From: Dehalococcoidia bacterium
GTDB taxonomy: Bacteria > Chloroflexota > Dehalococcoidia > Lucifugimonadales > CAJWER01
Assembly: GCA_034420735.1 (NCBI GenBank)
Contig: DAOULA010000058.1
Coordinates: 13,154 to 77,153 of the forward strand
Direction of reading: 5' to 3'
Length of the DNA stretch: 64,000 bases
The notes under the pieces are model-generated. The model ran no database searches, was not told the DNA's origin, and saw only the letters and a list, made by a program, of their open reading frames with translations. Both the position numbers and the translations under genes were made by a program. Below are positions 3,999 through 49,474 of the stretch, piece after piece (position 1 is the stretch's first letter; each line of letters opens with the position of its first letter).

Positions 3999-4469
3999 GT
4001 GAGGCATACCGGAGTGATCAGGAGCGGAAAACCAGCGGGCAGGGCACTTGCCCTCGGGCTCGTCGCAGCCCTGGGACTGCTGCTCTCAGTCGGTTGTGGA
4101 GGCGGCGACTCGTCGGAGCCGGACGACCCAGAGAGCACCCAGTCAACGTCGTCCTCCCTGTCCAAGATGGCCCGCGACGGAGAAGAGCTGTTCGACGCCA
4201 ACTGCTCGGCCTGTCACGGCATGAGAGCCGCTGGCACGAACCAGGGCCCGACGTTGATCGACAGGATCTACCACCCCGGCCATCACTCGGACGCCAGCAT
4301 CCGAAACGCGGTCAGCAGGGGAGTGCAGCAGCACCACTGGACGTTCGGCGACATGGCTCCCGTCGCCGGGGCCTCGCCGGACGACGTGGAGAAGATCATC
4401 TGCTACGTCCGCGAGCTGCAGCGCGCCGACGGCATCTTCGAGGGGGATGACTTCCAGACGGTGTGCTGA
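3999..4469 (+). CDS. class I c-type cytochrome, probable lipoprotein
   Basis: It has the CSACHG heme-binding motif, a distal Met candidate (GDMAP) and a signal peptide with a lipobox-like LLLSVGC. Confidence 0.85.
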   Translation: MRHTGVIRSGKPAGRALALGLVAALGLLLSVGCGGGDSSEPDDPESTQSTSSSLSKMARDGEELFDANCSACHGMRAAGTNQGPTLIDRIYHPGHHSDASIRNAVSRGVQQHHWTFGDMAPVAGASPDDVEKIICYVRELQRADGIFEGDDFQTVC

Positions 4470-4541
4470 TCCGGCCTCCCTTAGCTTGGCCCTGTGGCCC
4501 TCGCCTGATAAACTGCGCCGGAACTTGCAGGGAGGTCCGAC

Positions 4542-5423
4542 TTGGCCCGAATCCACGTGCTTGGCGCAGGCACACCCACTCCGACGCCCACCCGCTTCGG
4601 CTCGTCCTACGTAGTCGAGGTTGCCGGCGAGCAGGTCATGGTCGACTGCGGCCCCGCCGCGACGCACAAGATGGTCAAGGCAGGGCTCTGGCCCACCGAT
4701 ATCGACTACCTCTTCTTCACACACCACCACTTCGACCACGACGTCGACTATCCCTGTTTCCTGCTGTGCCGGTGGGACCAGAGCGTCGGCAGGGAGAACC
4801 GGCTCCAGGTCTACGGGCCTCCGCCCACCGAGAAGTTCACCGACGACCTCCTGAGGGAAGACGGCGGGCTCTTCGCACACGACTGGAAGACCCGCGTGGA
4901 GAACCCGGACAGCCAGCAGCTTCACCAGAATCGCGGCGGCACCCTCCCCCGAAAACCGCCGGACGTTTTCGCGAAGGACATCGCGCCCGGCAAGGTCTTC
5001 TCAGGCGATGGCTGGGAGGTCACGGCCGCTGAGGCCGAGCACGTGCAGCCTTACCTCGACTCCCTGGCGTATCGCATCGACAGCGACGAGGGCAGCATGG
5101 TCTTCACCGGCGATACGCAGCCGTGCGAGTCGGTCGTCGAGCTGGCGCGGGGCGCGGACATCATGCTCTGCATGTGCTGGGACGACCAGGAGACGATGGA
5201 GCGCAACGGCGAGGCGCACCGCCAGTGCGGCACGACCGGGGCTGCCCGCATGGCACAGGAGGCCGGGGTCGGTGCGCTCGCCCTGGTCCACATAGGGCCC
5301 AACCTCTCGCGGCACGGGCCCATGGAGAAGGGACTGGGCGACGTGTGCGCCGTCTACGACGGCAAGGTCATATTCACCGACGAGCTGCTCGCCATCGACG
5401 TCGAGCCCAGCTCGCAAGCCTGA
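4542..5423 (+). CDS. MBL-fold metallo-hydrolase, tandem paralog 1
   Basis: It has the HHHFDHD (HxHxDH) metal motif. The TTG start follows GGGAGG. It is the most divergent of the three tandem copies. Confidence 0.85.
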   Translation: MARIHVLGAGTPTPTPTRFGSSYVVEVAGEQVMVDCGPAATHKMVKAGLWPTDIDYLFFTHHHFDHDVDYPCFLLCRWDQSVGRENRLQVYGPPPTEKFTDDLLREDGGLFAHDWKTRVENPDSQQLHQNRGGTLPRKPPDVFAKDIAPGKVFSGDGWEVTAAEAEHVQPYLDSLAYRIDSDEGSMVFTGDTQPCESVVELARGADIMLCMCWDDQETMERNGEAHRQCGTTGAARMAQEAGVGALALVHIGPNLSRHGPMEKGLGDVCAVYDGKVIFTDELLAIDVEPSSQA

Positions 5424-5441: not shown

Positions 5442-6302
5442 ATGGCGCGAATTCACATCCTCGGCGCGGGTACGCCCACACCGACGGCCGAGCGTTTCGG
5501 CTCCTCTTTCGTCGCGGAGGTTGGCGGCGAGAAGATCATGGTCGACTGCGGCCCGGCCGCCACCCACAAGCTCGTGCAGGCCGGCCTCTGGCCGACCGAG
5601 ATCGACTACGTATTCTTCACCCACCACCACTTCGACCACGACGTCGACTTCCCGTGCTTCCTGCTGTGCCGGTGGGACCAGAGCATCGGCAAGGAGAACA
5701 CGCTGCAGGTCTTCGGGCCGACGCTGACGGAGCATCTCACCCACGGAATCATCGGCGAGGACGGCGTATTCGCCCACGACTGGAAGGCGCGCGTGAGCCA
5801 TCCCGCCAGCCAGCAGGTCCACGTGAACCGGGGCGGCACCCTCCCGCGCAGGCCGCCGGAGGTACTGGCGAAGGACGTGGGGCCCGGCAAGTTGTTCTCG
5901 GGCAGCGACTGGGAGATGACCGGGGCCCCGGCGGTGCACGCCCAGCCGTGGCTGGACTCCCTCGCATACCGGATAGACAGCGACGAGGGCAGCATCGTCT
6001 TCACCGGCGACACCGAGCCGTGCGATTCGGTGATCGACCTCGCCCGGGACGCTGACGTGATGTTCTGCATGTGCTGGGACGACGAGGAGTCCATGGAGGA
6101 GAACCAGGAGACCCACGGGGTCTGTGGGACGATGGGCGCTGCCCGCATGGCGCAGGAGGCCGGTGTGAAGAAGCTCGTGCTCGCACACCTCGGCCCGAAC
6201 CTCACCCGGCATCCTGTCATGGAGAAGGGCATCGGCGACGTGAAGAGCCGCTACGATGGCGACCTCGTATTCGCCGAAGAGCTGCTGGTCTTGGACGTGT
6301 GA
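5442..6302 (+). CDS. MBL-fold metallo-hydrolase, tandem paralog 2
   Basis: It has the HHHFDHD motif. The ATG follows AAGGAG. It is nearly identical to paralog 3. Confidence 0.9.
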   Translation: MARIHILGAGTPTPTAERFGSSFVAEVGGEKIMVDCGPAATHKLVQAGLWPTEIDYVFFTHHHFDHDVDFPCFLLCRWDQSIGKENTLQVFGPTLTEHLTHGIIGEDGVFAHDWKARVSHPASQQVHVNRGGTLPRRPPEVLAKDVGPGKLFSGSDWEMTGAPAVHAQPWLDSLAYRIDSDEGSIVFTGDTEPCDSVIDLARDADVMFCMCWDDEESMEENQETHGVCGTMGAARMAQEAGVKKLVLAHLGPNLTRHPVMEKGIGDVKSRYDGDLVFAEELLVLDV

Positions 6303-6341
6303 GTGCCGGTCGCACCCACTGCAGGAGAGGAGCCTGACGGC

Positions 6342-7202
6342 ATGGCGCGAGTGCACATCCTGGGTGCGGGTACGCCCACGCCGACCGCCGAGCGCTTCGG
6401 CTCCTCCTTCGTGGTCGAGGTCGCCGGCGAGAAGATCATGGTCGACTGCGGCCCAGCCACGACCTATAAGCTGGTCAAGGCCGGTCTGTGGCCCACCGAG
6501 ATCGACTACGTATTCTTCACCCACCACCACTTCGACCACGACGTGGACTTCCCGTGCTTCCTCCTCTGCCGCTGGGACCAGAGCATCGGCAAGGAGAACA
6601 CGCTGCAGGTCTTCGGTCCGACGCTGACGGAGCATCTCACCCACGGCATCATCGGCGAGGATGGCGTATTCGCCCACGACTGGAAGGCGCGCGTGGATCA
6701 TCCAACCGGTCAGCGCGTCCACGTGAACCGGGGCGGCACCCTCCCGCGCAAGCCGCCGGAGGTACTGGCGAAGGACGTGGGGCCCGGCAAGCTGTTCTCG
6801 GGCCGCGACTGGGAGATGACCGGAGCCCCGGCGGTGCACGCCCAGCCGTGGCTGGACTCCCTTGCATACCGGATCGACAGCGACGAGGGCAGCATCGTCT
6901 TCACAGGCGACACCGAGCCGTGCGACTCGGTGATCGAGCTCGCCCGGGACGCCGACGTCATGTTCTGCATGTGCTGGGACGACGAGGAGTCCATGGAGGA
7001 GAACCAGGAGACCTACGGGGTCTGTGGGACGATGGGCGCTGCCCGCATGGCCCAGGAGGCCGGGGTGAAGAAGCTCGTCCTGGCACATCTGGGCCCGAAC
7101 CTCGCCCGCCACCCTGTCATGGAGAAGGGCATAGGCGACGTGAAGAGCCGCTACGAGGGCGACCTGGTATTCGCAGACGAACTGCTGGTAGTGGACGTGT
7201 AA
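6342..7202 (+). CDS. MBL-fold metallo-hydrolase, tandem paralog 3
   Basis: The track ORF starts at 6303. The ATG at 6342 (MARVHILGAG) aligns with the paralog 2 start and follows GGAGAGGAG. Confidence 0.9.
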   Translation: MARVHILGAGTPTPTAERFGSSFVVEVAGEKIMVDCGPATTYKLVKAGLWPTEIDYVFFTHHHFDHDVDFPCFLLCRWDQSIGKENTLQVFGPTLTEHLTHGIIGEDGVFAHDWKARVDHPTGQRVHVNRGGTLPRKPPEVLAKDVGPGKLFSGRDWEMTGAPAVHAQPWLDSLAYRIDSDEGSIVFTGDTEPCDSVIELARDADVMFCMCWDDEESMEENQETYGVCGTMGAARMAQEAGVKKLVLAHLGPNLARHPVMEKGIGDVKSRYEGDLVFADELLVVDV

Positions 7203-7838: not shown

Positions 7839-8579
7839 GTGAATATCAGGTTCACCGGCACGTTCATCATCGTTCTGACCCTCTTCGTCACCGTGCTGAT
7901 TACGTCCAACATCATCGCGGTGAAGCCCATACGGCTGCTGATTCTCCCGTTCGAGTTCCTCGGCAGCAAAGACGTGGTCCTGCCGTCGGCGATAATCATC
8001 TTCCCCATCAGCTACATCATCGGCGACGTGCTTACGGAGGTGTACGGCTTCCGGATCGCCCGGGGGGTGATATGGCTGGGGTTCGGCGCAAACCTGCTGG
8101 TTGTCATCGCCCTCTGGATTGCGGGCTTTATTCCCGGCGCTTGCCAGGATCCGAATGGCTTCTGCCTCTGGTCGCCGGACACCCAAGCCTCATACGATCG
8201 CATTTTGGGCCAGGTGCCCTGGATACTGGTGGCCTCCTTCGTCGCCTACCTGATCGGCGAGTTCTCCAACTCCTCGGTGCTGGCCCTGCTCAAGTACAAG
8301 ATGCAGGGCCGCCTGCTGTTCGTCCGCACCATAGGCTCGACGGTCGTGGGCCAGGGGCTGGACTCGTTCATCTTCATATACATCGCCTTCGGAGTTGGCG
8401 GCGACTGGGGCGCACAGGGTCTGCTCAGCGCGGCGCTGGCCCAGTGGATAACGAAGATCCTGTACGAGACCGCGGCCACGCCCCTGACATACGCGGTCGT
8501 GGGATACATGAAGCGCACCGAGAAGATGGACGTGACGGACGTTCCCCGCTCGCTCAACCCGCTGGGGATATTCGCCTGA
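7839..8579 (+). CDS. yhhQ: queuosine-precursor transporter (YhhQ/DUF165, VUT family)
   Basis: It is a polytopic membrane protein with the family-typical ISYIIGDVLTEVYG segment. Confidence 0.8.
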   Translation: MNIRFTGTFIIVLTLFVTVLITSNIIAVKPIRLLILPFEFLGSKDVVLPSAIIIFPISYIIGDVLTEVYGFRIARGVIWLGFGANLLVVIALWIAGFIPGACQDPNGFCLWSPDTQASYDRILGQVPWILVASFVAYLIGEFSNSSVLALLKYKMQGRLLFVRTIGSTVVGQGLDSFIFIYIAFGVGGDWGAQGLLSAALAQWITKILYETAATPLTYAVVGYMKRTEKMDVTDVPRSLNPLGIFA

Positions 8580-15516: not shown

Positions 15517-18285
15517 CTACTCCAAATCGCCCCAGTTGGCGCCTGTCTTTACGTCAACCTCTAGGGGCACCGCCAGGGTCATGGCGGCGGGCATGATCTC
15601 GTCGACCAGGCCCTTCAGCTCGTCCAGCTCGTCCTGGGGCGACTCGAATATCAGCTCGTCGTGCACCTGCAGGATCATCAGCGACCGGAGCTCGCGCCCG
15701 TCCATCTCGGCCTGCAGGCGCACCATCGCCAGCTTCAGGATGTCGGCCGCGGTCCCCTGGATGGGCATGTTGATGGCCATGCGCTCGCCCGCCGAGCGCT
15801 GGTGGAAGTTGGGCGAGCGAATCTCCGGGATGTAGCGCCGCCTCCCCTTCAGTGTCTCCACGTAGCCGTCTTCCTTAACGCTGCGCTTGATCCCGTCGAT
15901 GTAGCTCTCTATCCCCGGGTACTTGCCGAAGTAGGCGTCGATGAACGCCTTGCCCTCGTCCGGCGTCAGCCCTGTCTGCTGGCTCATCCCGAACGGGCTC
16001 AGGCCGTATATCACGCCGAAGTTCATGATCTTGGCGATGCGCCGCATCTCAGGGTCCACCTCGTCTATGCCCACCCCGTACACCGACGACGCCGTCGCCG
16101 CGTGGATGTCCTGCCCGCTCTCGAACGCATCGATCAGGCCCTCGTCCATGGACAGCTCCGCCAGGATGCGCAGCTCGATCTGCGAGTAGTCCGCCGCCAG
16201 CAGCGTCCACCCGGGGTCCTGTGCTATGAAGGCCTGGCGCACCTCGCGCCCCATCTCCGTGCGGATCGGGATGTTCTGCACGTTCGGGTCGTTGCTCGAA
16301 ACGCGCCCCGTCGCCGACCCGGTCTGGTGGTACATCGTGTGGACGCGCCCCGTCTCCGGGTTCACCTGCCCGGGCAGCGAGTCCAGGTAGGTCGACTTGA
16401 TCTTGGTAAGCTGCCGGTACTCCAGCACCCTGTCCAGCACCTCGACGGCCACCGGGTTGACGTCGTCCACAACACCCCTGTTGATCTCCTGCCTGAGCCA
16501 CTCGAGAGACTGTGCGTCGGTGGCGTACCCTGTCTTCCTCTTCTTGGTGGGCGGCAGCCTCAGCTCATCGAACAGCACGTCCCCAAGCTGGCGCGACGAG
16601 CCGATGTTGAACTCGTGGCCCACCAGCTCGTACATCCCCGCCTCGGTCCGCTCTATGTCCCGCTCGAACCGGTTGGACATGGCCGTCAGGTGGTCCACGT
16701 CCACCGCAACACCGTTGCGCTGCATCCGGACCAGCACTGGGATGAGCGGCATCTCGAACTCGGCCAGGGAGCCCGCGACCCCCTTCTCGGCGGTCTCTTT
16801 CGCGAGCGTGTCCCTGAGCTGCCAGGTAGCGTCGGCCCGGCCGCACGCGTGGCCGGACGCGTCCCCGATGGTCGCCTCCGCCATCGTGATCTGCTTCCTG
16901 CCAGTGCCGGTGATGTCCGTGACCGGCTTGAGCTCGATGTCCAGCGACTCCAGCGCCAGCGCCTCGATGCCCACGGCCTTGCGGCCGCCCACATGCGCCG
17001 CGATCATCGGGTCGAAGTCGACGTTGCGCACCGTGACCCCGTGCCGGGCCAGCACCGTCATGCCGTGGTTGGCGTCGTGTGCCGACTTGGGTATCGACTC
17101 GTCTTCCAGCACGCCCCGGACAGCGTCCAGCGCCGCTTCGAGCCCGACCTGCTCGCCCTCCGCGTGTCCGACAGGCACGTACCAGGCGGCGTTCGCCTCG
17201 TTCGAGAAGGCCATGCCCACCAGCTCGCCGTACATGGGATTCATGGCCGTCGAGACCACCTCGAAGGCGAACCCGCCGGGCGAGTTAAGGGCCTCCGCCA
17301 TCTCGCGCAGGCCCTCGGAGGTGTCGACCACCGCGTACCGCGTGTCCCGCTCCTCGGGCTCCGGGAAGAGCTGGGCCTGCGCAGGTTCCCCGTCGCCCTG
17401 CGGGTCCGGGATCCGCGGCACGATGCTGAAGAACTCCAGCTCCTTCAGCTTCTCCAGCACCTCGGCGCGGTCGTAGTTCCACATCCGCATCCCGTCCATG
17501 TCCAGGTCTAGGTCCAGGTTGCGCACGATCGTCGTCAGGAACTTGCCGCGCCGCAGCTCCTCCACGTGGTCGCGTATGCTCTGCTGGGTCCTCGGCGGCT
17601 TGACCTCGTCCAGCCGCTCGATGATCCCCTCGACCGACCCGAACTGCGTCAGCAGCTTGATGGCCGTCTTGGCCCCCACGCCCGGCACGCCGGGTATGTT
17701 GTCCGTCGTGTCGCCCTGCAGCGCCTTGATGTCGGCGACCACCTCCGGGCCGAGCCCGTCGTACCGCTCCTTCACCTTCGCCACGTCGTACATCGTCGTG
17801 CGCTGCACGCTGTAGCTGAGCAGCACCCGCACCCGGTCCGACACCAGCTGGAGCTCGTCCGTGTCGCCCGTCAGCACCACCGTGTCGACGCCCTGCTCCT
17901 CGGCCTTCGCGCACAGCGTCCCCAGCACGTCGTCTGCCTCGTACCCCTCCCGCTCGAGCACGGGTATCCGGAACGCGTGCATGATCTCGCGCACCCGCTC
18001 GACCTGCTGCCGGAGCTCCGGCGGCATGGGCGGGCGCGTGGCCTTGTACTCGTCGTACTCGGCGTGCCTGAAGGTAGGGCCCGACAGGTCGAAGGCGATG
18101 GCGCAGTGCGTGGGCTCCAGGTCCGACAGGTTGCGCAGGAAGGTGTTGAGGAAGCCGTAAACGCCGCGCACCTCCTCGCCGGTCGTCCTGACCGTCATGG
18201 GGTTCTGGATGGCGTAGAAGGCCCTGTACACCATCGCGTGCCCGTCGAGCAGCACCAGCAGCGGCTTGTCGGCCGAACGTGTCAT
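15517..18285 (-). CDS. polA: DNA polymerase I
   Basis: 922 aa. It has a 5'-nuclease domain, a 3'-5' exonuclease-like domain and family A polymerase motifs (DYSQIELR, QVHDE). Confidence 0.97.
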   Translation of the reverse strand: MTRSADKPLLVLLDGHAMVYRAFYAIQNPMTVRTTGEEVRGVYGFLNTFLRNLSDLEPTHCAIAFDLSGPTFRHAEYDEYKATRPPMPPELRQQVERVREIMHAFRIPVLEREGYEADDVLGTLCAKAEEQGVDTVVLTGDTDELQLVSDRVRVLLSYSVQRTTMYDVAKVKERYDGLGPEVVADIKALQGDTTDNIPGVPGVGAKTAIKLLTQFGSVEGIIERLDEVKPPRTQQSIRDHVEELRRGKFLTTIVRNLDLDLDMDGMRMWNYDRAEVLEKLKELEFFSIVPRIPDPQGDGEPAQAQLFPEPEERDTRYAVVDTSEGLREMAEALNSPGGFAFEVVSTAMNPMYGELVGMAFSNEANAAWYVPVGHAEGEQVGLEAALDAVRGVLEDESIPKSAHDANHGMTVLARHGVTVRNVDFDPMIAAHVGGRKAVGIEALALESLDIELKPVTDITGTGRKQITMAEATIGDASGHACGRADATWQLRDTLAKETAEKGVAGSLAEFEMPLIPVLVRMQRNGVAVDVDHLTAMSNRFERDIERTEAGMYELVGHEFNIGSSRQLGDVLFDELRLPPTKKRKTGYATDAQSLEWLRQEINRGVVDDVNPVAVEVLDRVLEYRQLTKIKSTYLDSLPGQVNPETGRVHTMYHQTGSATGRVSSNDPNVQNIPIRTEMGREVRQAFIAQDPGWTLLAADYSQIELRILAELSMDEGLIDAFESGQDIHAATASSVYGVGIDEVDPEMRRIAKIMNFGVIYGLSPFGMSQQTGLTPDEGKAFIDAYFGKYPGIESYIDGIKRSVKEDGYVETLKGRRRYIPEIRSPNFHQRSAGERMAINMPIQGTAADILKLAMVRLQAEMDGRELRSLMILQVHDELIFESPQDELDELKGLVDEIMPAAMTLAVPLEVDVKTGANWGDLE

Positions 18286-19413
18286 CTACCCGGCCCCCTG
18301 CTCTCGCCCCGATTCGCCCACGCCGTTCGAGGAGGCGTGGGCAACGCTGCCGTTCACGCCACCTGGCCCTTCGATGGGCGGGTTCGTGAAGTGCAGCAGG
18401 TACTCGAAGGTCGTGCCCATGGTGATGTAGTTACTCGGCCAGCCGAAGATGCCGACCCGGTTCACGATGTTGGTGCGGTCCCAGATTATTGTGTTGCGGA
18501 ACTCGTAGCCCGCCTTCCTGAGGGCCTCGACGACCGATATGTGGATCGTGACGCGCTCGCCCTCCCACCACATGTCCGGCACGTTCACCACGCAGTGGCC
18601 CCCCGGCTTCAGGACCTTCCGAATACCGCCGAAGATGGAGCGCATGGCCTCAGAGTACTCGTCTAGCGGCATGGTGCCCAGGTCGCGAGGGTCCTGGGAG
18701 TACTGCTCGACTGCCCCCAGCTGCTCGTTCTTGCGGTCGCGGCGCGACTTGTTCCGCCTCTGCCTGTTCAGCAGGTTCGCGTACGGCGGCGACGTCAGCA
18801 CCAGCGACACGCTGCCGGGCTCCAGGTACTCGGCAACGCTGGATGCGTCGTCCTGCACGGCCACTTGGGCAGTGCTCGTAAACAGCCCCGCGCCTCCAAG
18901 CCGGGACTCCGAGAGGTCGACGTACCCGGCGTGAAGGTCGAAGCCCACGGCGTTGCGATTCGTGTCCTGGGCGGCCACGAGGGCCGTGCCGCTGCCCACG
19001 AACGGGTCGAGCACCAGCTCGCCCTCGTGGGTGAACAGCTCGATCACCTTAGTCGCCAGGGAGATGGGGAAGGTCGCGGGGTGCAGCTTCTTGTCGCGGA
19101 TGTCCCGGCCCTGGTAGTTGAACTGCCACACGCCTAGCTGGCTCTTCAGCCACTCCTTGGCCGTCAGGCAGTTCAGGTGGTTGGGCTTGCACTCGCACAG
19201 CCGCCCGCCGCCGATAGGCAGGCGCGTCCGGTATAGACCGCTGCCATCCCTGACCGCACGCGGCAGCCCTTGGCTCGCCAGCGTCTCGGCAGCCCCATCT
19301 GAGGCACCGGTCGCCCGCCCGTCCGTTATGGTGTCGCCCATGGGGTTCCCATCCTGCTTCAGGTGCATTGTATACCCAAGCCCGCCGCCCGCGCCCTTGC
19401 TGGACTCCGGCAT
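18286..19413 (-). CDS. DNA methyltransferase (N6-adenine or N4-cytosine type), no cognate nuclease nearby
   Basis: The SAM-binding motif DPFVGSGT is followed by the catalytic SPPY motif. The start is taken at MPESSKG (19413), and the track ORF extension to 19782 does not look like protein. The stop TAG directly abuts the polA ATG. Confidence 0.8.
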   Translation of the reverse strand: MPESSKGAGGGLGYTMHLKQDGNPMGDTITDGRATGASDGAAETLASQGLPRAVRDGSGLYRTRLPIGGGRLCECKPNHLNCLTAKEWLKSQLGVWQFNYQGRDIRDKKLHPATFPISLATKVIELFTHEGELVLDPFVGSGTALVAAQDTNRNAVGFDLHAGYVDLSESRLGGAGLFTSTAQVAVQDDASSVAEYLEPGSVSLVLTSPPYANLLNRQRRNKSRRDRKNEQLGAVEQYSQDPRDLGTMPLDEYSEAMRSIFGGIRKVLKPGGHCVVNVPDMWWEGERVTIHISVVEALRKAGYEFRNTIIWDRTNIVNRVGIFGWPSNYITMGTTFEYLLHFTNPPIEGPGGVNGSVAHASSNGVGESGREQGAG

Positions 19414-19724
19414 CTCAACTACCCAACTGCCCCTTGACAAGCATAGCACATTCGTACTACTATAGTCTCGGTAGGAAGGGGAGAAGATGAGCCCGAGCCC
19501 CTCCGGGTCCGCTCGCCGTCGGGATGGAGCGGGCCCGTGGTGTTTACAAAGCGCCTTCGAGGTCAAGCACGGCAACTCGTCCGGAGCCGTAACTGTAGCG
19601 TCTACCCCCTTTCCGGGTGCGGGTATATCCGTATTGCCGTCGCACACCCTTTGGCTGAGCAGCAAGGTCACTGGGTCTGCGGAAATTGTTGATAGAGGGC
19701 GGCGAACTGCCGCCGCTTCAGAGA

Positions 19725-19852
19725 CCGGAGCGCGTCTCCCAGGGATCCGTTGACTATCGCAGTGTGTGATCAAACCGCCCACTCAAAGTGGGCACGGTCG
19801 AACATTCCGGCTCCGCGAGGCAGCGGGCCAACCTGACAGAGACGCGCTCCGG
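19725..19852. repeat. 14-bp perfect inverted repeat closing a 100-nt loop inside a non-coding spacer
   Basis: ccggagcgcgtctc (19725-19738) and gagacgcgctccgg (19839-19852) are perfect complements. The loop contains the hairpin GCCCAC-tcaaa-GTGGGC (19777-19793). Confidence 0.6.
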
Positions 19853-20059
19853 CCCCATCGAAAGAAGAACCGAGAGTACCGACAGAAAAGACGAAGCTAG
19901 GTAGAGGCGAGACACAAGGAGAAGCTGGCGAGACGAGATACAATCGAATATAGCCTGGTGATCGGTGGCCCCGCAGGCCTCCGGCGCTGATATCTGGCCT
20001 GGACGTCGCTTGCGTCCTGTGCCGGATAAAGACGGGCAGGAGGTGAGGGCAGCGTGCCG

Positions 20060-21901
20060 CTAGACGACCCGGCGGTCGGCCCGCAGCCACTCTCCGCGAA
20101 GCTCCGCGCTTAGCACATGGCCGCAGCGATCCAGGATTGCGTCGCCCAGGGCCGCGGCCTCCGTGTCGACGATGGCCTGCGTGTCTTCGAGCGACGCGCT
20201 AGCTGGGGCGTAGTGCTGCACGTAGATTTTCAGCTTGGGCTCGGTGCCTGAGGGCCTGACGGTGACGCGCGTCCGGCGGTCTTCGGACAGGTACAGCGTC
20301 ACGATGTCGGCCGCTCCGCCCATGCGGTATGCGTCCGGCGCCCGCGCGGTCTCGTCCAGCCTGTCGTCCATACCGGTTACCGCCATCCCGACCAGGCTCG
20401 GCGGAGGGCCCGCTCGCAGGCCCAGCATCACCTCGGTCATCACGTCGCGCCCGGAGCTGCCTGGCAGCTCGACGAGCAGCAGCGCGTTCCTGTAGTAGCC
20501 GTACTCGCGGTAGATCTCGTCGAGGTACATCGGCACCGTCGCGCCCCTGTCCTTGAGGTGCGACGCCATCTCGCACACGAGCAGTGCGCCTATGGCCGCG
20601 TCCTTGTCGCGCACGAAGTCGCCCGCCAGGTAGCCCAGGCTCTCCTCCGCCGCGAACACGAACCGCGACGGGTCGTCCAGCCCGCCGATGACCTGGGCGA
20701 TGAACTTGAACCCGACCAGCAGGTCGTCCACCGGCTCCAGGCCGAAACTGCGGGCTACGTCCGCGATCAGCCCGGTCGTCACCAGCGTCTCGATCACCAC
20801 CTCGTCGCCGCGCAGTTCGCCCGCGTCCCTGCGGCGCGAGAGGATGTGGTGGGTCAGCGCCGCGCCCACCTGGTTGCCCGTCAGGGCGCGGACCCCTGCG
20901 GCCTCCAAGTCCGTCCTGGCCGCGACGCCGATGCGGTCCGCGTCCGGGTCGGCGCATATGGCGATGTCTGCTCCTACCTGCTCCGCGAGCCTTACCGGCA
21001 GCGCCATCACCTCGGCGAACTCCGGGTTGATGAGGTCGCCCGCCGCGGTCGGGAAGCCCTCGTCGGGCTCCGCCTGCTCCGGCACCACGGTCACTTCGAA
21101 CCCCTCGGCACGCAGCACCGGCAGGACGTTGGTCGAGCCCGCGCCGTGCATAGGGCTGAACACGACCTTCGCCGACCTGCTCTCCTCAGCGGCCAGGCCC
21201 CGAACGGCGCCCAGGTACGCCTCGTCGACGCCTGCGCCTATGGTCGACACGAGCCCGTTTGACCTCGCCCGGGCCAGCCCCATGCGGCGCACCTCGTCGA
21301 CGTCCGTGACGAGCTGCATGAATCGCGCGTCGTGGGGCGGCACCACCTGCCCGCCGTCGGACCAGTAGAACTTGAACCCGTTGTCGGTCCGCGGGTTGTG
21401 CGACGCCGTGATCTGTACACCGGCCGTTGCCCCCAGGTGGCGCACGGCAAAGGACACCTCCGGTGTGGAGCGCAGGCCGTCGAACAGGTGCGACCTTATG
21501 CCGTTGGCCGCGAACACCTCGCACGACAGCTCGGCGAACTCCCTGGACTGCCTGCGGGCCTCGTGGCCCACCACGACGCCCGCCTCCCTCGCGTCTGCCC
21601 CGTAGTCGTCGATGAAGGCGCTCAGAGCCTGGGCCGCCTCGCCGATGGTGCGGGCGTTGATGCGGTTGGGGCCCGGGCCGAGCGGGCCTCGTATGCCGCC
21701 CGTGCCGACCCTGAGCCTGGAGGCGAAGGCGTCCTCGATCTCGTCCCAGCGTTCGTCCGCTGCCAGGGTCTCGATCTCAGGGACGAAGGCCGAAAGGCCG
21801 GGGTCTGTCAGCCAGCGGTCGAGATTGGCGAGGGCGGCCGGACTCAGCCTGCCTGAGGATGCAGCCGTGTCGAGTACCCGTTTGGCGGTGCGGCCAGCCA
21901 T
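20060..21901 (-). CDS. alpha-D-phosphohexomutase family protein (phosphoglucomutase/phosphomannomutase)
   Basis: It has the active-site loop TASHNP (QITASHNPRTDNGFKFY) and a Mg-binding DPDADR segment. Confidence 0.9.
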   Translation of the reverse strand: MAGRTAKRVLDTAASSGRLSPAALANLDRWLTDPGLSAFVPEIETLAADERWDEIEDAFASRLRVGTGGIRGPLGPGPNRINARTIGEAAQALSAFIDDYGADAREAGVVVGHEARRQSREFAELSCEVFAANGIRSHLFDGLRSTPEVSFAVRHLGATAGVQITASHNPRTDNGFKFYWSDGGQVVPPHDARFMQLVTDVDEVRRMGLARARSNGLVSTIGAGVDEAYLGAVRGLAAEESRSAKVVFSPMHGAGSTNVLPVLRAEGFEVTVVPEQAEPDEGFPTAAGDLINPEFAEVMALPVRLAEQVGADIAICADPDADRIGVAARTDLEAAGVRALTGNQVGAALTHHILSRRRDAGELRGDEVVIETLVTTGLIADVARSFGLEPVDDLLVGFKFIAQVIGGLDDPSRFVFAAEESLGYLAGDFVRDKDAAIGALLVCEMASHLKDRGATVPMYLDEIYREYGYYRNALLLVELPGSSGRDVMTEVMLGLRAGPPPSLVGMAVTGMDDRLDETARAPDAYRMGGAADIVTLYLSEDRRTRVTVRPSGTEPKLKIYVQHYAPASASLEDTQAIVDTEAAALGDAILDRCGHVLSAELRGEWLRADRRVV

Positions 21902-33623: not shown

Positions 33624-33653
33624 TTGACACCTGTATTCCCTAGCGAATAACAT
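33624..33653 (+). promoter_or_regulatory. candidate promoter for the HU gene
   Basis: TTGACA (33624-33629), an 18-nt spacer, then TAACAT (33648-33653). This is a pattern match only. Confidence 0.3.
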
Positions 33654-34091: not shown

Positions 34092-34976
34092 ATGCGTTAC
34101 TACCGCATACGCGACGACATCGGTAACATTCACCTTACAGTGGAGTCCGAGCGGGGCAAGCTCGCGTCTCTCACGGCTCTCAATGACGAGGTCAGGGGCT
34201 TCGACGACCTGATGAAGGTGAGCTACGTCGGAGGGCAGTCCATAGATGACGTGGCCCGAAACGTGCTCTCCGCCGGTGACGGCCAGGTCTTCGACCTAGA
34301 CTCGGTCGTCGCGTCGTCGAAGGCGGGTCCGGGAGGGAGCAGGGTCATCCGCCCCTTGGATCCTGACGAGATCTGGGCGGGCGGCATCGGCAACTACCCT
34401 GTCCCGGACGAGGCCGTAAGCGCCATGCCCGACTTCACCAGGACGGCCTACGAGGCGGACAGGCCCCCTGTCATGTACAAGGGCGGCCCCACGCGTCTGG
34501 CCGGGCCCTTCGACGACATAGGCATCCGCTCCGACACGACCTCCGTTGCGGAGGGCGAGCTGGTGCTCGTGCTCTACAAGGGCAGGATCGTCGCCTACAG
34601 CACCGGCAACGAGGTTGCCGGCGGACTCATGGGGCAGACTATCTGGTGGATGGTCCCGAGCAAGGTGTTCACGGGCTGCGCTTCTCTCGGACCGTGCGTC
34701 GTGACGCCCGACAGCATGCCCGACCCGATGGGACGGGGCATGGAGCTGACTATCACGCGGGATGGGAGCGAGGCGGGCTCCTCGACCAATACCACCGACC
34801 ACCGGAGACCCCCGGAAGAGATAGTCAAGTGGGTGACCGCACACGACACGCCGCCTGACCTGGTCATCGTGTACACCGGCGGGTGCGTGGCCGACGGCCC
34901 CCTCGAAGAGGGCGACGTGGTCCGCATCAGCCTGGACGGGGTCGGCGCGGTGGAGAACAGGGTCACGGTCGTCTGA
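34092..34976 (+). CDS. fumarylacetoacetate hydrolase (FAH) family protein
   Basis: 294 aa. The C-terminal half resembles the FAH fold (GELVLVL...GNEV). The assignment was made by eye only. Confidence 0.55.
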
Positions 34977-44800: not shown

Positions 44801-45705
44801 GTTACGAGCGCCGCAAGGTAAGGACGGGCAGGGTAGTCAGCGACAAGATGGACCGCACGATCGTGGTCCAGATCGAGTGGCGGAGCCCGCACCGTCTGTA
44901 CAAGAAGCCGATTCGACGCATGTCCAAGTTCATGGTCCACGACCCGGGGAACATCTCTATGGTCGGGGACATAGTCCAGGTCATGGAGGCCCGCCCCAGG
45001 TCCAAGACGAAGCGATGGCGGCTGTTGAAAGTGCTGCAGCGCAGCGAAACGGTGGACATCCGGCCCGAGGATATCGGGGAGGACACACAGATCGCCGCCC
45101 CAGTGCCGGAACCCGCACCCGAGCCTGTGCCCGTCCCCGAGGACGTGGTGGACGCGGCGGAGGCCCCCCAGGCCGAGGCAGAACCCGGTCCCGAAGTTAG
45201 CGAGGCCGCGGAGCCCGTCGCAGAGGCCCCGGCAGACGAGGCGGAAGAGGCCGCAGGGCCCGCCGCCGAGATGGATACGGGACCCGAAGCCGAAGAGGCC
45301 GCCGAGCCGGTGGCAGAGGCTGAGGCAGACGAGGTGGAAGGGGCCGCAGAGCCCGCCGCCGAAGTGGAGACAGCAGAACCGGCCGCCGAGTCTGAGACTG
45401 GCGATGCGGAAGAGGCCTCGGAGCCGGTCGCCGAAGCGAATACCGAAGCCGAGGCCGAAGAGGTCGCTGAGCCCGTCGCCGAGACGGTAACTGAAGAGGC
45501 CGAAGGGGCCGTCGAGCCTACCGACCAGGCCGGATCCGACACGGACGACGATGGAGCAGCCGCGGAGGCCGAGTCGTCCGAGGAGACACAGCCCGAAGCA
45601 GAGCCCACCGACGCAGCGGACTCCGAGCCGTCCTCTGAGCTAGAACAAGATGCCGGCGCCCCCTCGGAGAGCGCTGACGGGAAGACGGAGACTGAGACCC
45701 GGTGA
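44797..45705 (+). CDS. rpsQ: 30S ribosomal protein S17 with a roughly 220-aa acidic low-complexity C-terminal extension
   Basis: The first ~83 aa form a normal S17 core ([19 protein letters not shown]...KRWRLLKV). The frame then stays open to the GTGA overlap with rplN. Confidence 0.85.
45187..45372 (+). repeat. two tandem 93-nt (31-codon) repeats inside the S17 tail
   Basis: 45187-45279 encodes [31 protein letters not shown]. 45280-45372 encodes [31 protein letters not shown]. Confidence 0.8.
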
Positions 45706-46071: not shown

Positions 46072-46389
46072 GTGAAGATACGGGCGGACGACAACGTGAT
46101 CGTCATCAAGGGGCGCGACCGCGGCAAGCAGGGCCAGGTCACCAGGACCTACCCAAAGGCTGGGAAAGTGCTGGTTGAGGGCGTTGGAGTGGTCGTAAGG
46201 CACACCAAGCCCACGGGCACGGTGCGCCAGGCTGGAATCATCCAGAAGGAGATGCCGATTCCCGCGGCGAACGTGATGCTCGTCTGCACCCACTGCACCA
46301 AGGGGACCAGGGTCCGGTACAGGGTGCTGGCAGACGGGACGAAGGCCCGGGTCTGCACCCGGGACGGTTGTGGAGAAGTAATAGAGTGA
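46072..46389 (+). CDS. rplX: 50S ribosomal protein L24
   Basis: It has a KOW motif ([15 protein letters not shown]) and a C-terminal CxxC...CxxxxC cluster. Confidence 0.95.
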
Positions 46390-47123
46390 CGACGGACAAG
46401 AAAGAACAGAGCTCCAGGGCCAAGGCGTCCACGAAACAGAAGGGCAAGGCGTCAGGTGGCGCGAAGGCCCAGGCTGGCAAGGGTGGGTCTGCCCGCAAGT
46501 CTTCGGGGAAGGGCGGCAAGAAGCCGGCCAAGGCGGCCGCGCCTGTGGCCCGCCCCGTGCCCAGGCTGATCGACAGGTTCCGCGGGGAGGTTACCCCGCA
46601 GCTCATGAAGGAGTTCGAGTACTCCAGCGTGATGCAGGTGCCCAGGCTGACGAAGATCATGATGAACATAGGCATCGGGCAGGAGGCCAGCGAGAACTCG
46701 CAGGCCATCGAGAACGCCACCGGGGACATAACCAAGATCTCCGGTCAGCGACCGGTTGTCACCCGCGCCAGGAAGTCCATTGCCGGCTTCAAGCTGCGGG
46801 AGGGCACCCCGGTGGGAGTGGCCGTAACGCTGAGGGACAAGAGGATGTACGAGTTCTTCGATAGGCTCGTGAGCTCGTCTCTCCCCAGGATCAGGGACTT
46901 CAGGGGCGTCTCGCCCGAGTCCTTCGACGGCAGGGGCAACTACTCGCTGGGCATACGGGAACAGATCATATTCCCCGAGATCGACTACAACGCCATCGAC
47001 AAGATTCGGGGCCTCCAGGTCGTCATCACGACGACTGCGAGGACCGACCGCGAGGGGTTCCGGCTCCTCGAATTGATGGGAATGCCGTTTGCAAGGTCGG
47101 AGTCCGAGGCCGCGCGCCTGTAG
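46386..47123 (+). CDS. rplE: 50S ribosomal protein L5 with a possible ~58-aa Lys/Ala/Gly-rich N-terminal extension
   Basis: The canonical L5 begins at [11 protein letters not shown]...[16 protein letters not shown]. The GTG at 46386 overlaps the rplX stop (GTGA). In-frame alternative GTG starts lie at 46545 and 46557, and the track ORF starts at 46368. Confidence 0.85.
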
Positions 47124-49418: not shown

Positions 49419-49474
49419 TCCGCGGGCGGCGCGTAAGCCCACACTCACGAGCTGAAAGCAAGAGCCAACACGAC

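Follow-up and report, generated by a model that had tools for sequence, protein, structure and literature searches.

A strain-specific insertion between phosphohexomutase and methyltransferase genes of a Dehalococcoidia bacterium is the probable site of an entire gene encoding a large folded noncoding RNA

The window analysed here is a 64-kb (64,000-nucleotide) stretch of DNA from a Dehalococcoidia bacterium, and the feature under study is located in the spacer between a phosphohexomutase (PGM) gene and an N6/N4 DNA methyltransferase (MTase) gene (Table 1). This spacer measured 646 nt between called genes in comparison to ≤94 nt for every other called-gene gap in the surrounding 13.8 kb, which bears out the unusual gap size in a tightly packed region that the first-pass annotation had singled out. 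The PGM assignment was based on Pfam PGM_PMM domains I–III, which scored above their curated cut-offs, and on domain IV, which scored just under its cut-off. The closest MTase homologues were mostly 342–352 aa in length and most of their N-termini read MSDT, MGDT or MDDN, and judged by these homologues the MTase start is almost certainly the ATG at 19341 (MGDT...) and not position 19413 as originally given. The noncoding gap stands with this corrected start, which would widen it to about 718 nt. Open reading frames within the spacer showed no host-like codon use (log-odds of -0.08 to -0.46, where 88-codon windows of reference genes have a mean of about +0.5) and GC3 periodicity was not found from about 19250 to 20060, in agreement with their initial description as not protein-like.

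Table 1. Positions of the genes, signals and predicted structural elements at the PGM–MTase junction (window coordinates).
Feature	Position	Strand	Basis or remark
N6/N4 DNA methyltransferase (MTase) gene, flanking	18286–19341	-	Pfam PF01555; homologue N-termini and lengths; outside the RNA element
Promoter-like motif GGGTATACAATGCACC ahead of MTase	19362–19377	-	Nearly invariant; outside the insert; marks the ancestral junction
Insertion, ~640 nt	19402–20041		Boundaries read against the empty sites of sister genomes
Sigma-70-type promoter, TTGACA / 18-nt spacer / TACTAT	19434–19463	+	Scan; conserved in four lineages
-35 element TTGACA	19434–19439	+	
-10 element TACTAT	19458–19463	+	
Structured conserved core, ~390 nt, 16 predicted helices	19470–19860	+	83–85% identity; RNAalifold
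H1	19474–19481 / 19607–19614	+	RNAalifold
H5	19504–19517 / 19522–19537	+	RNAalifold
Hairpin GGGTCCGCTC / GAGCGGGCCC	19505–19514 / 19527–19536		Sequence check
H6	19539–19544 / 19550–19555	+	RNAalifold
H11	19698–19704 / 19711–19717	+	RNAalifold
Hairpin GGCGGC / GCCGCC	19698–19703 / 19709–19714		Sequence check
3' domain closed by H12, enclosing H13–H16	19725–19852	+	Fold z-score -4.6 to -6.4
H15 hairpin GCCCAC/GTGGGC, inside the H12 domain	19777–19793	+	Predicted structure
Hairpin GCCCAC / GTGGGC	19777–19782 / 19788–19793		Sequence check
U-depleted purine-rich tail, predicted unstructured	19861–19955	+	Composition, not sequence, conserved across lineages
Repeat GGCGAGAC	19906–19913 and 19927–19934		
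GC-rich hairpin region closing the insert	19956–20041	+	Hairpins in whole-insert fold
Phosphohexomutase (PGM) gene, flanking, convergent with the RNA gene	20060–21901	-	Pfam PGM_PMM domains, gene calls

Comparison with five sister Dehalococcoidia genomes (L002, L007, L018, L034 and L059), whose PGM proteins are 86–90% identical to that of the window, showed no gap at this position, with ~40–70 nt from the PGM stop to the MTase motif, and the window therefore carries an insertion. The insert is flanked by ...CCCTCACC just past the PGM stop and, ahead of the promoter-like motif of MTase, by AGC..GGGCGCGGGCGG. This motif separates the insert from the MTase start and was identified with 0–2 differences in ten relatives (L002, L003, L005, L007, L018, L034, L059, L061, L062 and L071). 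The same PGM–MTase junction is retained in L003, and the unrelated cargo that occupies it in other relatives identifies this junction as a hotspot for insertions. Its two ends in the window, GGACTCCGGC... and ...GACGGGCAGGA of the insert, do not form inverted copies of one another, and both reading and a repeat scan found no terminal inverted repeats; no target duplication was found at the boundaries, which share a 2-nt GG microhomology only. An origin as a deletion remnant of the relatives' cargo was rejected, as blastn, tblastn and tblastx comparisons with the cargo of L005, L061 and L062 gave no match. Neither the status of the spacer as a lineage-specific hotspot insertion nor the existence of homologues at other loci had been foreseen in the first-pass annotation.

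Homologues were identified by a protein search with the 88-aa ORF of the window, which led to the called ORFs P0141, P0142 and P0144, and the resulting sample is biased and small as a consequence of its discovery through spurious ORF calls. Window positions 19425–19895 were 83–85% identical over 435–469 nt to sequences in L066, L067, L068, L069 and L070; since L066, L069 and L070 represent one species, these sequences together with the window amount to four independent lineages. Core identity among the four lineages was 81–87%, and the element identity of 83–85% falls slightly short of the 86–93% nt that housekeeping genes of the window share with those of its sister species. The flanks, promoter spacer and tail of the homologous elements were not alignable between lineages. 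The element occurs as one copy per locus and in four different genomic contexts, its unrelated neighbours outside the window being mdh, a molybdopterin oxidoreductase and an FGGY kinase. Genes located downstream, 200–570 nt past the core, also differed by lineage (glyoxalase and a molybdopterin oxidoreductase; another molybdopterin oxidoreductase; AP_endonuc_2), and IS481 and IS110 were found directly downstream of element copies in two strains. The element is single-copy in the window, no second copy was seen in the compared loci, and an nhmmer profile search of the sequences collected for comparison found no further copies. A core with 83–87% identity, surrounded by unalignable flanks and equipped with its own conserved promoter, is the pattern generally looked for in a noncoding RNA gene.

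The promoter faces into the insert on the + strand, exactly where it had been placed before, and scored 10/12 matches in our scan, with 1 site observed against 0.3 expected from shuffles of 19000–20400. Sites with at least 10/12 matches are rare (four in 60 kb, of which one is a 12/12 site ahead of rpsL and another is directly upstream of a gene start), those of this quality mark genuine operons such as that of rpsL, and the promoter is thus unlikely to have arisen by chance. Across the four lineages the -35 TTGACA never varies, an 18-nt spacing is kept and the -10 reads TACTAT, TATCCT or TATTCT (TAnnnT), and the spacer sequence between them has diverged beyond alignment. Transcription on the + strand would start near 19470, and we infer that the element is transcribed and that RNA rather than DNA is its functional product.

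RNAalifold modelling of the core predicted 126 pairs, in which 97.2% of cells were paired, in comparison to 40–46% when the 3' partners were slid. Pairs in which both sides had changed numbered 7 against a shuffle mean of 3.5 (2/500 shuffles reach 7) and 0–2 in slid controls, counted over four lineages only and with a structure predicted from the very alignment in which pair changes were tested. These compensatory changes were carried by H12, H11 and H6, all without broken pairs, and H12 alone contributed 3; H9 and H10 were among the predicted helices with broken pairs. Most predicted pairs are invariant across the four lineages and covariation is statistically weak; variable columns made up 18% of paired in comparison to 36% of unpaired positions (Fisher p = 2.4e-4). 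The observed substitutions are consistent with the predicted structure. H12 is, in the window, a perfect 14-bp inverted repeat (19725–19738 / 19839–19852) around 100 nt, and a 42-nt insertion in L068 lengthens H15 coaxially. The predicted H1 pairing would sequester the Shine-Dalgarno-like (SD-like) GGAAGGGG. A possible long-range pairing of GGAGCCG (19583–19589) with CGGCUCC (about 19809–19815) was also spotted by eye, and neither segment varies. Many invariant G-U pairs would become A-C mismatches on the other strand, which favours the + strand; this strand preference agrees with the direction of the promoter.

Folding energies gave a more localized picture. The whole insert was unremarkable (z-scores of -2.1 on the + strand and -1.0 on the - strand, 20 shuffles), as was the putative 5' hairpin region alone (z -0.4), and among 140-nt sliding windows only 19715–19854 folded exceptionally (z -6.4 on + and -5.1 on -). 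The original description of the spacer as structure-rich holds only in part, for this segment, the other 140-nt windows being mostly unremarkable, and the three strong hairpins listed with it were all present within 1 nt of their reported positions. The structured RNA it proposed has gained support from + strand conservation in three other lineages, from the noncoding pattern of change and from some compensatory pairs.

Downstream of the core, the purine-rich tract of roughly 100 nt previously reported was recovered as a tail of 74% purine and 8% T, and tails from all lineages (~95–106 nt) had a similar composition (T 2–8%, purine 71–76%). Folding energy per nt was -0.06 to -0.10 kcal/mol in the tails in comparison to -0.45 in the core. 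Both copies of the repeated GGCGAGAC exist, the second exactly as described and the first one position further along than 19905–19912. Hfq-type ARN-triplet periodicity was not found in the tails (p 0.05–0.95 across tails), and SD-like tetramers were no commoner in the tail than base composition predicts according to a hand estimate. The GC-rich region that follows may, from its modelled fold, mark where the RNA ends at its 3' side or act as its terminator; GC-rich hairpins were also present ~120–170 nt after the core in other lineages, and a T-run intrinsic terminator for the + strand transcript was not found.

Several other explanations of the insert were weighed against an RNA gene. The conservation of a strong promoter, an SD-like sequence (GGAAGGGGAG) and a plausibly spaced ATG at 19487, together with ORFs of 170–174 aa called in L066 and L067, may suggest a small protein, or its pseudogene, that is represented in the window by the 88-aa ORF. 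Sequence evolution in the core is noncoding and argues against this: the indels separating the window from the other lineages measure 1,1,4,2,1,1 nt, 2,1,1,1,4,2,1,1,2 nt and 1,1,2,1,2,1,42,1 nt, so that only 1 of the 23 listed pairwise core indels is a multiple of three (the 42 nt), the called ORFs match the window in alternating frames, and variable columns are spread 29/29/29 over the codon positions with no third-position excess. The 88-aa ORF has a codon log-odds of -0.42 where the reference mean is about +0.5, it matched no Pfam family, its window copy has an in-frame stop, and L067 has GTG for the ATG, a change that converts the modelled pair there from A-U to G-U. Long ORFs are in any case to be expected from U depletion and from the discovery of homologues through ORF calls, and a protein-coding origin is considered highly improbable. 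The location between PGM and MTase could alternatively indicate a cis-acting part of the neighbours: MTase-polA might have a long 5' leader or regulatory region here, PGM a 3' UTR or terminator region, or a restriction gene that was lost might have left its scar. In principle, formation of the PGM 3' end could be disturbed by an antisense transcript that converges on it. Nevertheless, the sister genomes manage without the insert, the conserved MTase promoter-like motif is located downstream of it, and the homologues adjoin unrelated genes, with no conserved same-strand downstream gene class among the lineages of the kind that would mark a riboswitch or leader. The MTase-polA leader offered as one option by the first-pass annotation is not supported, the conserved element and its promoter lying on the strand opposite to MTase; its other option, a decayed restriction partner, is not supported either: relatives have either no gene or unrelated cargo at the junction, the insert resembles none of the hotspot's cargo genes, tblastx and tblastn comparisons with them were empty and frame constraint is lacking. 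A cis-acting or relic origin is accordingly given hardly any weight.

A divergent member of a known family that covariance models had missed (RNase P, tmRNA, SRP, 6S, OLE/ROOL/GOLLD, a group I/II intron, or a retron or transposon guide RNA) would fit a stand-alone, single-copy RNA of 400–570 nt, which resembles housekeeping or 'ornate' large RNAs, and we assume that soil Dehalococcoidia metagenome assemblies are probably scarce in Rfam seed alignments. However, a cmscan of the whole window with Rfam 15, whose families also take in HEARO and riboswitches, gave 0 matches at gathering thresholds, scans of the window copy, L067 and L068 at E-values up to 10 gave unrelated matches of ≤18 bits with none common to the copies, and ARAGORN identified 0 tRNA or tmRNA genes in the window; the first-pass annotation had likewise recognized no RNase P, tmRNA, SRP, 6S, SAM riboswitch or group II intron domain V by eye. 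The RNase P P4 motif, a tRNA-like 3' end and group II domain V were absent by reading, and neither a reverse transcriptase nor an IscB/TnpB or IS110 gene was consistently adjacent; a missed known family is therefore regarded as very unlikely. The insert may instead be conserved noncoding DNA belonging to a cassette that moves horizontally, or to a non-autonomous mobile element, in which case similarity would reflect recent spread rather than selection on an RNA and any transcript would be incidental. Its presence opposite an empty site in five sister genomes, the different context in every lineage, a junction that acts as a hotspot for unrelated cargo and the IS481 and IS110 immediately downstream in two strains all point this way, and the perfect 14-bp inverted repeat first suggested a miniature inverted-repeat transposable element (MITE). 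Like MITEs, the insert is small (~640 nt), noncoding, present or absent between close relatives and found at different loci. In contrast to MITEs, it has its inverted repeat inside, as the closing stem of an RNA-like domain whose pairs show compensatory changes, and the element lacks terminal repeats, a target duplication and conserved termini: the ends of the unit differ between copies, conservation is confined to the internal core, and one copy was seen per locus with no other in 64 kb or the compared loci. Copies of the repeat arm occurred in the window at chance frequency (3 found, 2.9 expected), with none in the compared loci or viral contigs, and the MITE reading of this repeat was set aside. 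Conservation of the core next to an unalignable tail and promoter spacer in the same element indicates differential constraint rather than uniform recent transfer, and compensatory changes with fewer substitutions in paired columns likewise speak against inert DNA. Phage or plasmid origin was also rejected, as phage, plasmid and viral collections gave no blastn matches and pattern scans of viral contigs were empty. An integron cassette was discarded because the sequences bordering the 19725–19852 palindrome, CCGGAGCG and CGCTCCGG, are by reading not RYYYAAC/GTTRRRY core sites; no integrase was called in the 13.8-kb neighbourhood, and other hotspot cargo had no comparable attC-like palindrome. 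Taken together, inert mobile DNA is considered an unlikely explanation, although less so than the readings above.

The spacer is most plausibly explained as a strain-specific insertion that most likely holds an entire noncoding RNA gene whose product is large and folded, and it is probable that this gene is independently transcribed and belongs to a structured family outside Rfam 15. Under this proposal, the conserved sigma-70 promoter would drive + strand transcription of an RNA with three sections, namely the multi-helix core, a U-poor, purine-rich single-stranded tail of ~95 nt and a GC-rich 3' hairpin region, and this makeup would give a total length of about 400–570 nt. The ~640-nt cassette would be the whole unit, placed at a recombination or insertion hotspot between PGM and the MTase-polA pair, with the RNA gene antisense to both neighbours (convergent with PGM, divergent from MTase) and its homologues located elsewhere in the genomes of other Dehalococcoidia lineages. 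A trans-acting RNA may be envisaged in which the folded core binds a protein partner and the unstructured purine-rich tail offers a single-stranded surface where a second partner, or pyrimidine-rich RNA, could attach; this is a speculative suggestion with a small chance of being correct. No description of such an RNA was found in the literature searched, and the chances are about even that it constitutes an undescribed class from soil Dehalococcoidia, defined by a length of ~400–570 nt, a multi-domain core, an obligatory U-depleted tail, its own promoter and a cassette that relocates between hotspots.

New large structured bacterial RNA families are rare, and from each of RNase P, tmRNA, group I/II introns, OLE, ROOL and GOLLD came new biochemistry or new assemblies. 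In soil and subsurface, Dehalococcoidia are abundant but for the most part uncultured, and their RNA biology is little known. That a core of ~400 nt is conserved, and in long stretches invariant, implies that it has a specific activity or molecular partner. The RNA gene would here travel as cargo through a chromosomal hotspot at which the exchanged genes otherwise encode proteins. Our analysis provides a testable object: homologues aligned as a seed, a structure and transcription start predicted from them and the window, and accessions of samples for transcript search. Should the insert prove to be inert mobile DNA, it would still mark a sharply defined insertion hotspot beside a conserved orphan methyltransferase-polA pair.

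Known systems share individual features with the proposed RNA. OLE, ROOL and GOLLD are stand-alone bacterial RNA genes of several hundred nt with many helices and highly conserved nucleotides, and their biochemical function was unknown at discovery (PMC9723947, PMC12286853). The present RNA differs from them in having no Rfam match, in its host clade of soil Dehalococcoidia, in the lack of a conserved gene neighbourhood and in resting on 4 lineages where theirs rest on hundreds. OLE sits with oapA-type partner genes, which were not seen near the present element, and to our knowledge a U-depleted purine-rich tail is not a described feature of OLE, ROOL or GOLLD. RNase P RNA and tmRNA resemble it in size (350–450 nt), single copy, own promoter and a context that varies between lineages; unlike them, the present element has no covariance-model match, shows on reading neither of the universally conserved motifs (P4 of the GGAAAGUCC type; an acceptor and T-arm like those of tRNA, with CCA), and is missing at this site in sister species. 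The protein-sponge RNAs CsrB/RsmZ and CrcZ likewise combine structured RNA with a long purine- and A-rich region of potential single-stranded binding sites, whereas the present RNA has neither repeated GGA-in-loop units nor Hfq distal-face ARN periodicity, and its conserved part is the structured core rather than repeats. 6S RNA and Ms1 are abundant stand-alone RNAs that bind RNA polymerase and are single-copy, promoter-driven and trans-acting with no conserved neighbour. The present RNA gave no Rfam 6S match but shares with both the organization of a single-copy, promoter-driven structured RNA without a conserved neighbour, for which trans-action is proposed here, and it differs from them in being 2–3 times longer and in its multi-domain architecture, which contrasts with a single long helix that is interrupted and opens into a central bubble.

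The window belongs to a 165-kb Dehalococcoidia (Chloroflexota) metagenome scaffold (ENA ERZ23495130 scaffold_290), whose source annotation called no genes between the phosphohexomutase (PGM) and DNA methyltransferase (MTase) genes. The remaining intergenic gaps of the neighbourhood were all ≤94 nt, GC3 periodicity was lost from about 19250 to 20060 and codon-use scores were negative for all spacer ORFs. This bore out the ORF-poor gap in a packed genome described in the first-pass annotation, but not its MTase start, as the 19413 start given by the gene caller falls within the insert and is probably wrong. ATG 19341 is taken as the real start: the closest homologues mostly have MSDT, MGDT or MDDN at the N-terminus and are mostly 342–352 aa long. 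The stop codon of the MTase directly adjoins the start codon of polA (window 18285–18288), suggesting translational coupling. This orphan MTase, best matched by Type II MTase models, occurs widely in Chloroflexota, with 5803 homologues at E ≤1e-40. Distant Dehalococcoidia (L008, L010, L011) lack it and have polA directly after PGM, so the MTase is itself an older occupant of the PGM–polA position; a further relative (L003, 7863–8193) appears to retain just the beginning of the MTase gene ahead of polA.

Scanning the PGM protein against one genome per GTDB species identified seven close relatives with 86–90% protein identity. Empty junctions in L002, L007, L018, L034 and metagenome contig L059 had about 40–70 nt after the PGM stop, then GGGTATACAATGCACC, followed by an SD-like sequence and the ATG of the MTase. 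Compared with these sites the window carried about 640 extra bases (19402–20041), with neither terminal inverted repeats nor target duplication at the boundaries. Other relatives, among them two (L062 and L063) whose PGM falls in the same 90%-identity cluster as that of the window, carried different and mutually unrelated cargo at this junction, and the window insert resembled none of it (L005, L061, L062/L063, L071). The junction is a hotspot with sharp limits: apart from the empty state it shows at least five kinds of occupant, namely the window insert and the cargo of L005, L061, L062/L063 and L071. No hotspot cargo matched Pfam defence domains or PADLOC, and at least two sense-oriented cargo genes (L061, L005) lie immediately behind their own strong promoter. 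The 16-nt GGGTATACAATGCACC (19362–19377, − strand), which includes the palindrome GTATAC and lies about 20–30 nt upstream of the MTase start, was nearly invariant in the window, L002, L003, L005, L007, L018, L034, L059, L061, L062 and L071, and the adjacent MTase coding start was less conserved; possible roles for the motif are a −10 element, an operator or an autoregulatory site.

The Logan assembly L065 (SRR13587050), made independently, reproduced window 16169–19826 exactly, so the MTase-side junction, at least, is no assembly artefact; the PGM-side junction rests on the window assembly. L065, probably from the same sample, ends at 19826 inside the inverted-repeat domain 19725–19852, which may hamper assembly.

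Table. Genes, junction cargo, element loci and predicted helices (positions in the window or in the named locus)
Feature	Position	Strand	Description
AdoHcy hydrolase		−	first in − strand gene order
SAM synthetase		−	after AdoHcy hydrolase
PGM	20060–21901	−	after SAM synthetase, before spacer
N6/N4 DNA MTase		−	between spacer and polA
polA	15517–18285	−	after MTase
Cargo L005	7843–8642		800 nt; 149-aa ORF resembling membrane protein
Cargo L061	1992–3500		1.5 kb; 389-aa ORF
Cargo L062	7843–13020		5.2 kb; two antisense genes, 704 and 836 aa
Cargo L063	1969–7145		as L062
Cargo L071	1649–3407		antisense gene, 527 aa, 40% identical to 704-aa protein of L062/L063
Element L066/L069/L070			between mdh and glyoxalase/molybdopterin-oxidoreductase pair
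Element L067			after DUF2298 gene, before different molybdopterin oxidoreductase
Element L068			between FGGY kinase and AP_endonuc_2 gene
Helix H12	19725–19738/19839–19852	+	A-U to G-U to G-C; C-G and U-A swaps
Helix H11	19698–19704/19711–19717	+	G-C to C-G flip
Helix H6	19539–19544/19550–19555	+	compensatory changes

Copies of the insert at other loci were found through an exhaustive HMMER search with the promoter-proximal 88-aa ORF (19487–19750), which returned three predicted "proteins". These agreed with the window in alternating reading frames, indicating homology at the DNA level with frameshifting indels. The contigs of these matches and of two members of the cluster of called ORF P0141 yielded five further copies, three of them (L066, L069, L070) from one species with flanking proteins mostly 96–100% identical. 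Window 19425–19895 was 83–85% identical to the five copies over 435–469 nt and the copies were 81–87% identical among themselves, slightly below the 84–93% nucleotide identity that the window and its sister species show for PGM, polA and MTase. An nhmmer profile found exactly one copy per element locus and no additional copy in the rest of the window or the remaining fetched loci. Immediately past the RNA gene tail, in the same intergenic region, L066 carries an IS481-type rve transposase (5657–6841) and L069 an IS110-type element (4458–5402); L070 has neither. GGCGGGTTT(C/G)AAACCCGCC, a palindrome resembling a REP element or terminator, is found repeatedly among these genomes. In L068 it stands on both sides of the RNA gene (6045–6063 and 6714–6732), and in L066 (4674–4692) and L070 (4692–4710) upstream of it; the L005 cargo holds another copy (8391–8409). 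The palindrome is absent from the 64-kb window.

A protein-coding gene was rejected on the pattern of change. Only one of 23 pairwise core indel events relative to the window (42 nt) was a multiple of three, variable columns were distributed 29/29/29 over codon positions, the window's ORF frame contains an in-frame stop, L067 carries GTG where ATG stands, and codon use is unlike the host's; the insert thus appears non-coding. That long ORFs were called in L066 and L067 is as expected, since U depletion removes stop codons and the copies were located via ORF calls.

The first-pass promoter (TTGACA-18-TACTAT, 19434–19463, + strand) scored 10/12, with one site found against 0.3 expected. Across all aligned lineages TTGACA was invariant and the 18-nt spacer was fixed in length, its sequence having diverged; the −10 read TACTAT, TATCCT or TATTCT. 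Sites scoring ≥10/12 are rare (four in 60 kb, among them a 12/12 site ahead of rpsL), so the promoter is probably real. Another such site (TTGACA-18-TAACAT, 33624–33653, + strand, 10/12) precedes the next + strand ORF, at 34092, by about 440 nt.

About 7 nt downstream of the −10 begins a core of about 390 nt with long invariant runs, for which RNAalifold predicted 126 pairs in 16 helices; prediction and testing used one small alignment of four lineages. Pairing was possible in 97.2% of alignment cells, compared with 40–46% for slid partners, and seven pairs had changed on both sides (shuffle mean 3.5; 2 of 500 shuffles reached seven; slid controls 0–2), mainly in helices H12, H11 and H6. Variable columns made up 18% of paired and 36% of unpaired positions (p = 2.4e-4), and a 42-nt insertion in the H15 loop of L068 is predicted to extend H15 coaxially. 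Many invariant G-U pairs would become A-C mismatches on the − strand, favouring the + strand in agreement with promoter orientation. All three hairpins noted at first pass were found; "structure-rich" holds for 19715–19854, which folds exceptionally (z about −5 to −6) and has a perfect 14-bp inverted repeat as its closing stem, but other sliding windows were mostly unremarkable.

The purine-rich tract with its GGCGAGAC repeat was also present, the first copy at 19906–19913, one base from the position first given. Every lineage has such a tail of about 95–105 nt after the core (2–8% U, 71–76% purine), unalignable between lineages, predicted unstructured and followed by GC-rich hairpins. Composition conserved without sequence conservation argues for a functional role of the tail within the predicted transcript. 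Equally U-poor, purine-rich 95-nt stretches occur elsewhere in the window (45231–45321, 46356–46396 and 49431–49456, + strand), so composition alone is not unique to the element.

Three origins had been proposed for the spacer. A long regulatory leader for MTase-polA and the decayed remnant of a lost restriction gene both went unsupported; an unannotated structured RNA gained support from homologues, the non-coding pattern of change, compensatory pairs and the conserved promoter. With moderate confidence, we read the insert as a stand-alone gene whose product would be a large, so far undescribed structured RNA, carried as a cassette into the hotspot that separates PGM from MTase-polA. A mobile non-coding element, inert or selfish, is the main rival and seems to us unlikely. 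As a working guess, the stand-alone gene would encode an RNA that acts in trans within a ribonucleoprotein, with a protein bound to its folded core and a purine-rich tail that might offer a single-stranded platform.

The Rfam scan proposed at first pass assigned no known family: the whole window matched none in Rfam 15 at gathering thresholds, and three divergent copies gave nothing consistent at E-values up to 10. ARAGORN detected no tmRNA, phage, plasmid and viral-contig comparisons gave no matches, and our literature search found no description of such an RNA. The insert RNA shows none of the features that define membership of known families, and its closest analogues, in kind only, include the large "ornate" RNAs OLE, ROOL and GOLLD and, as a stand-alone regulator, 6S.
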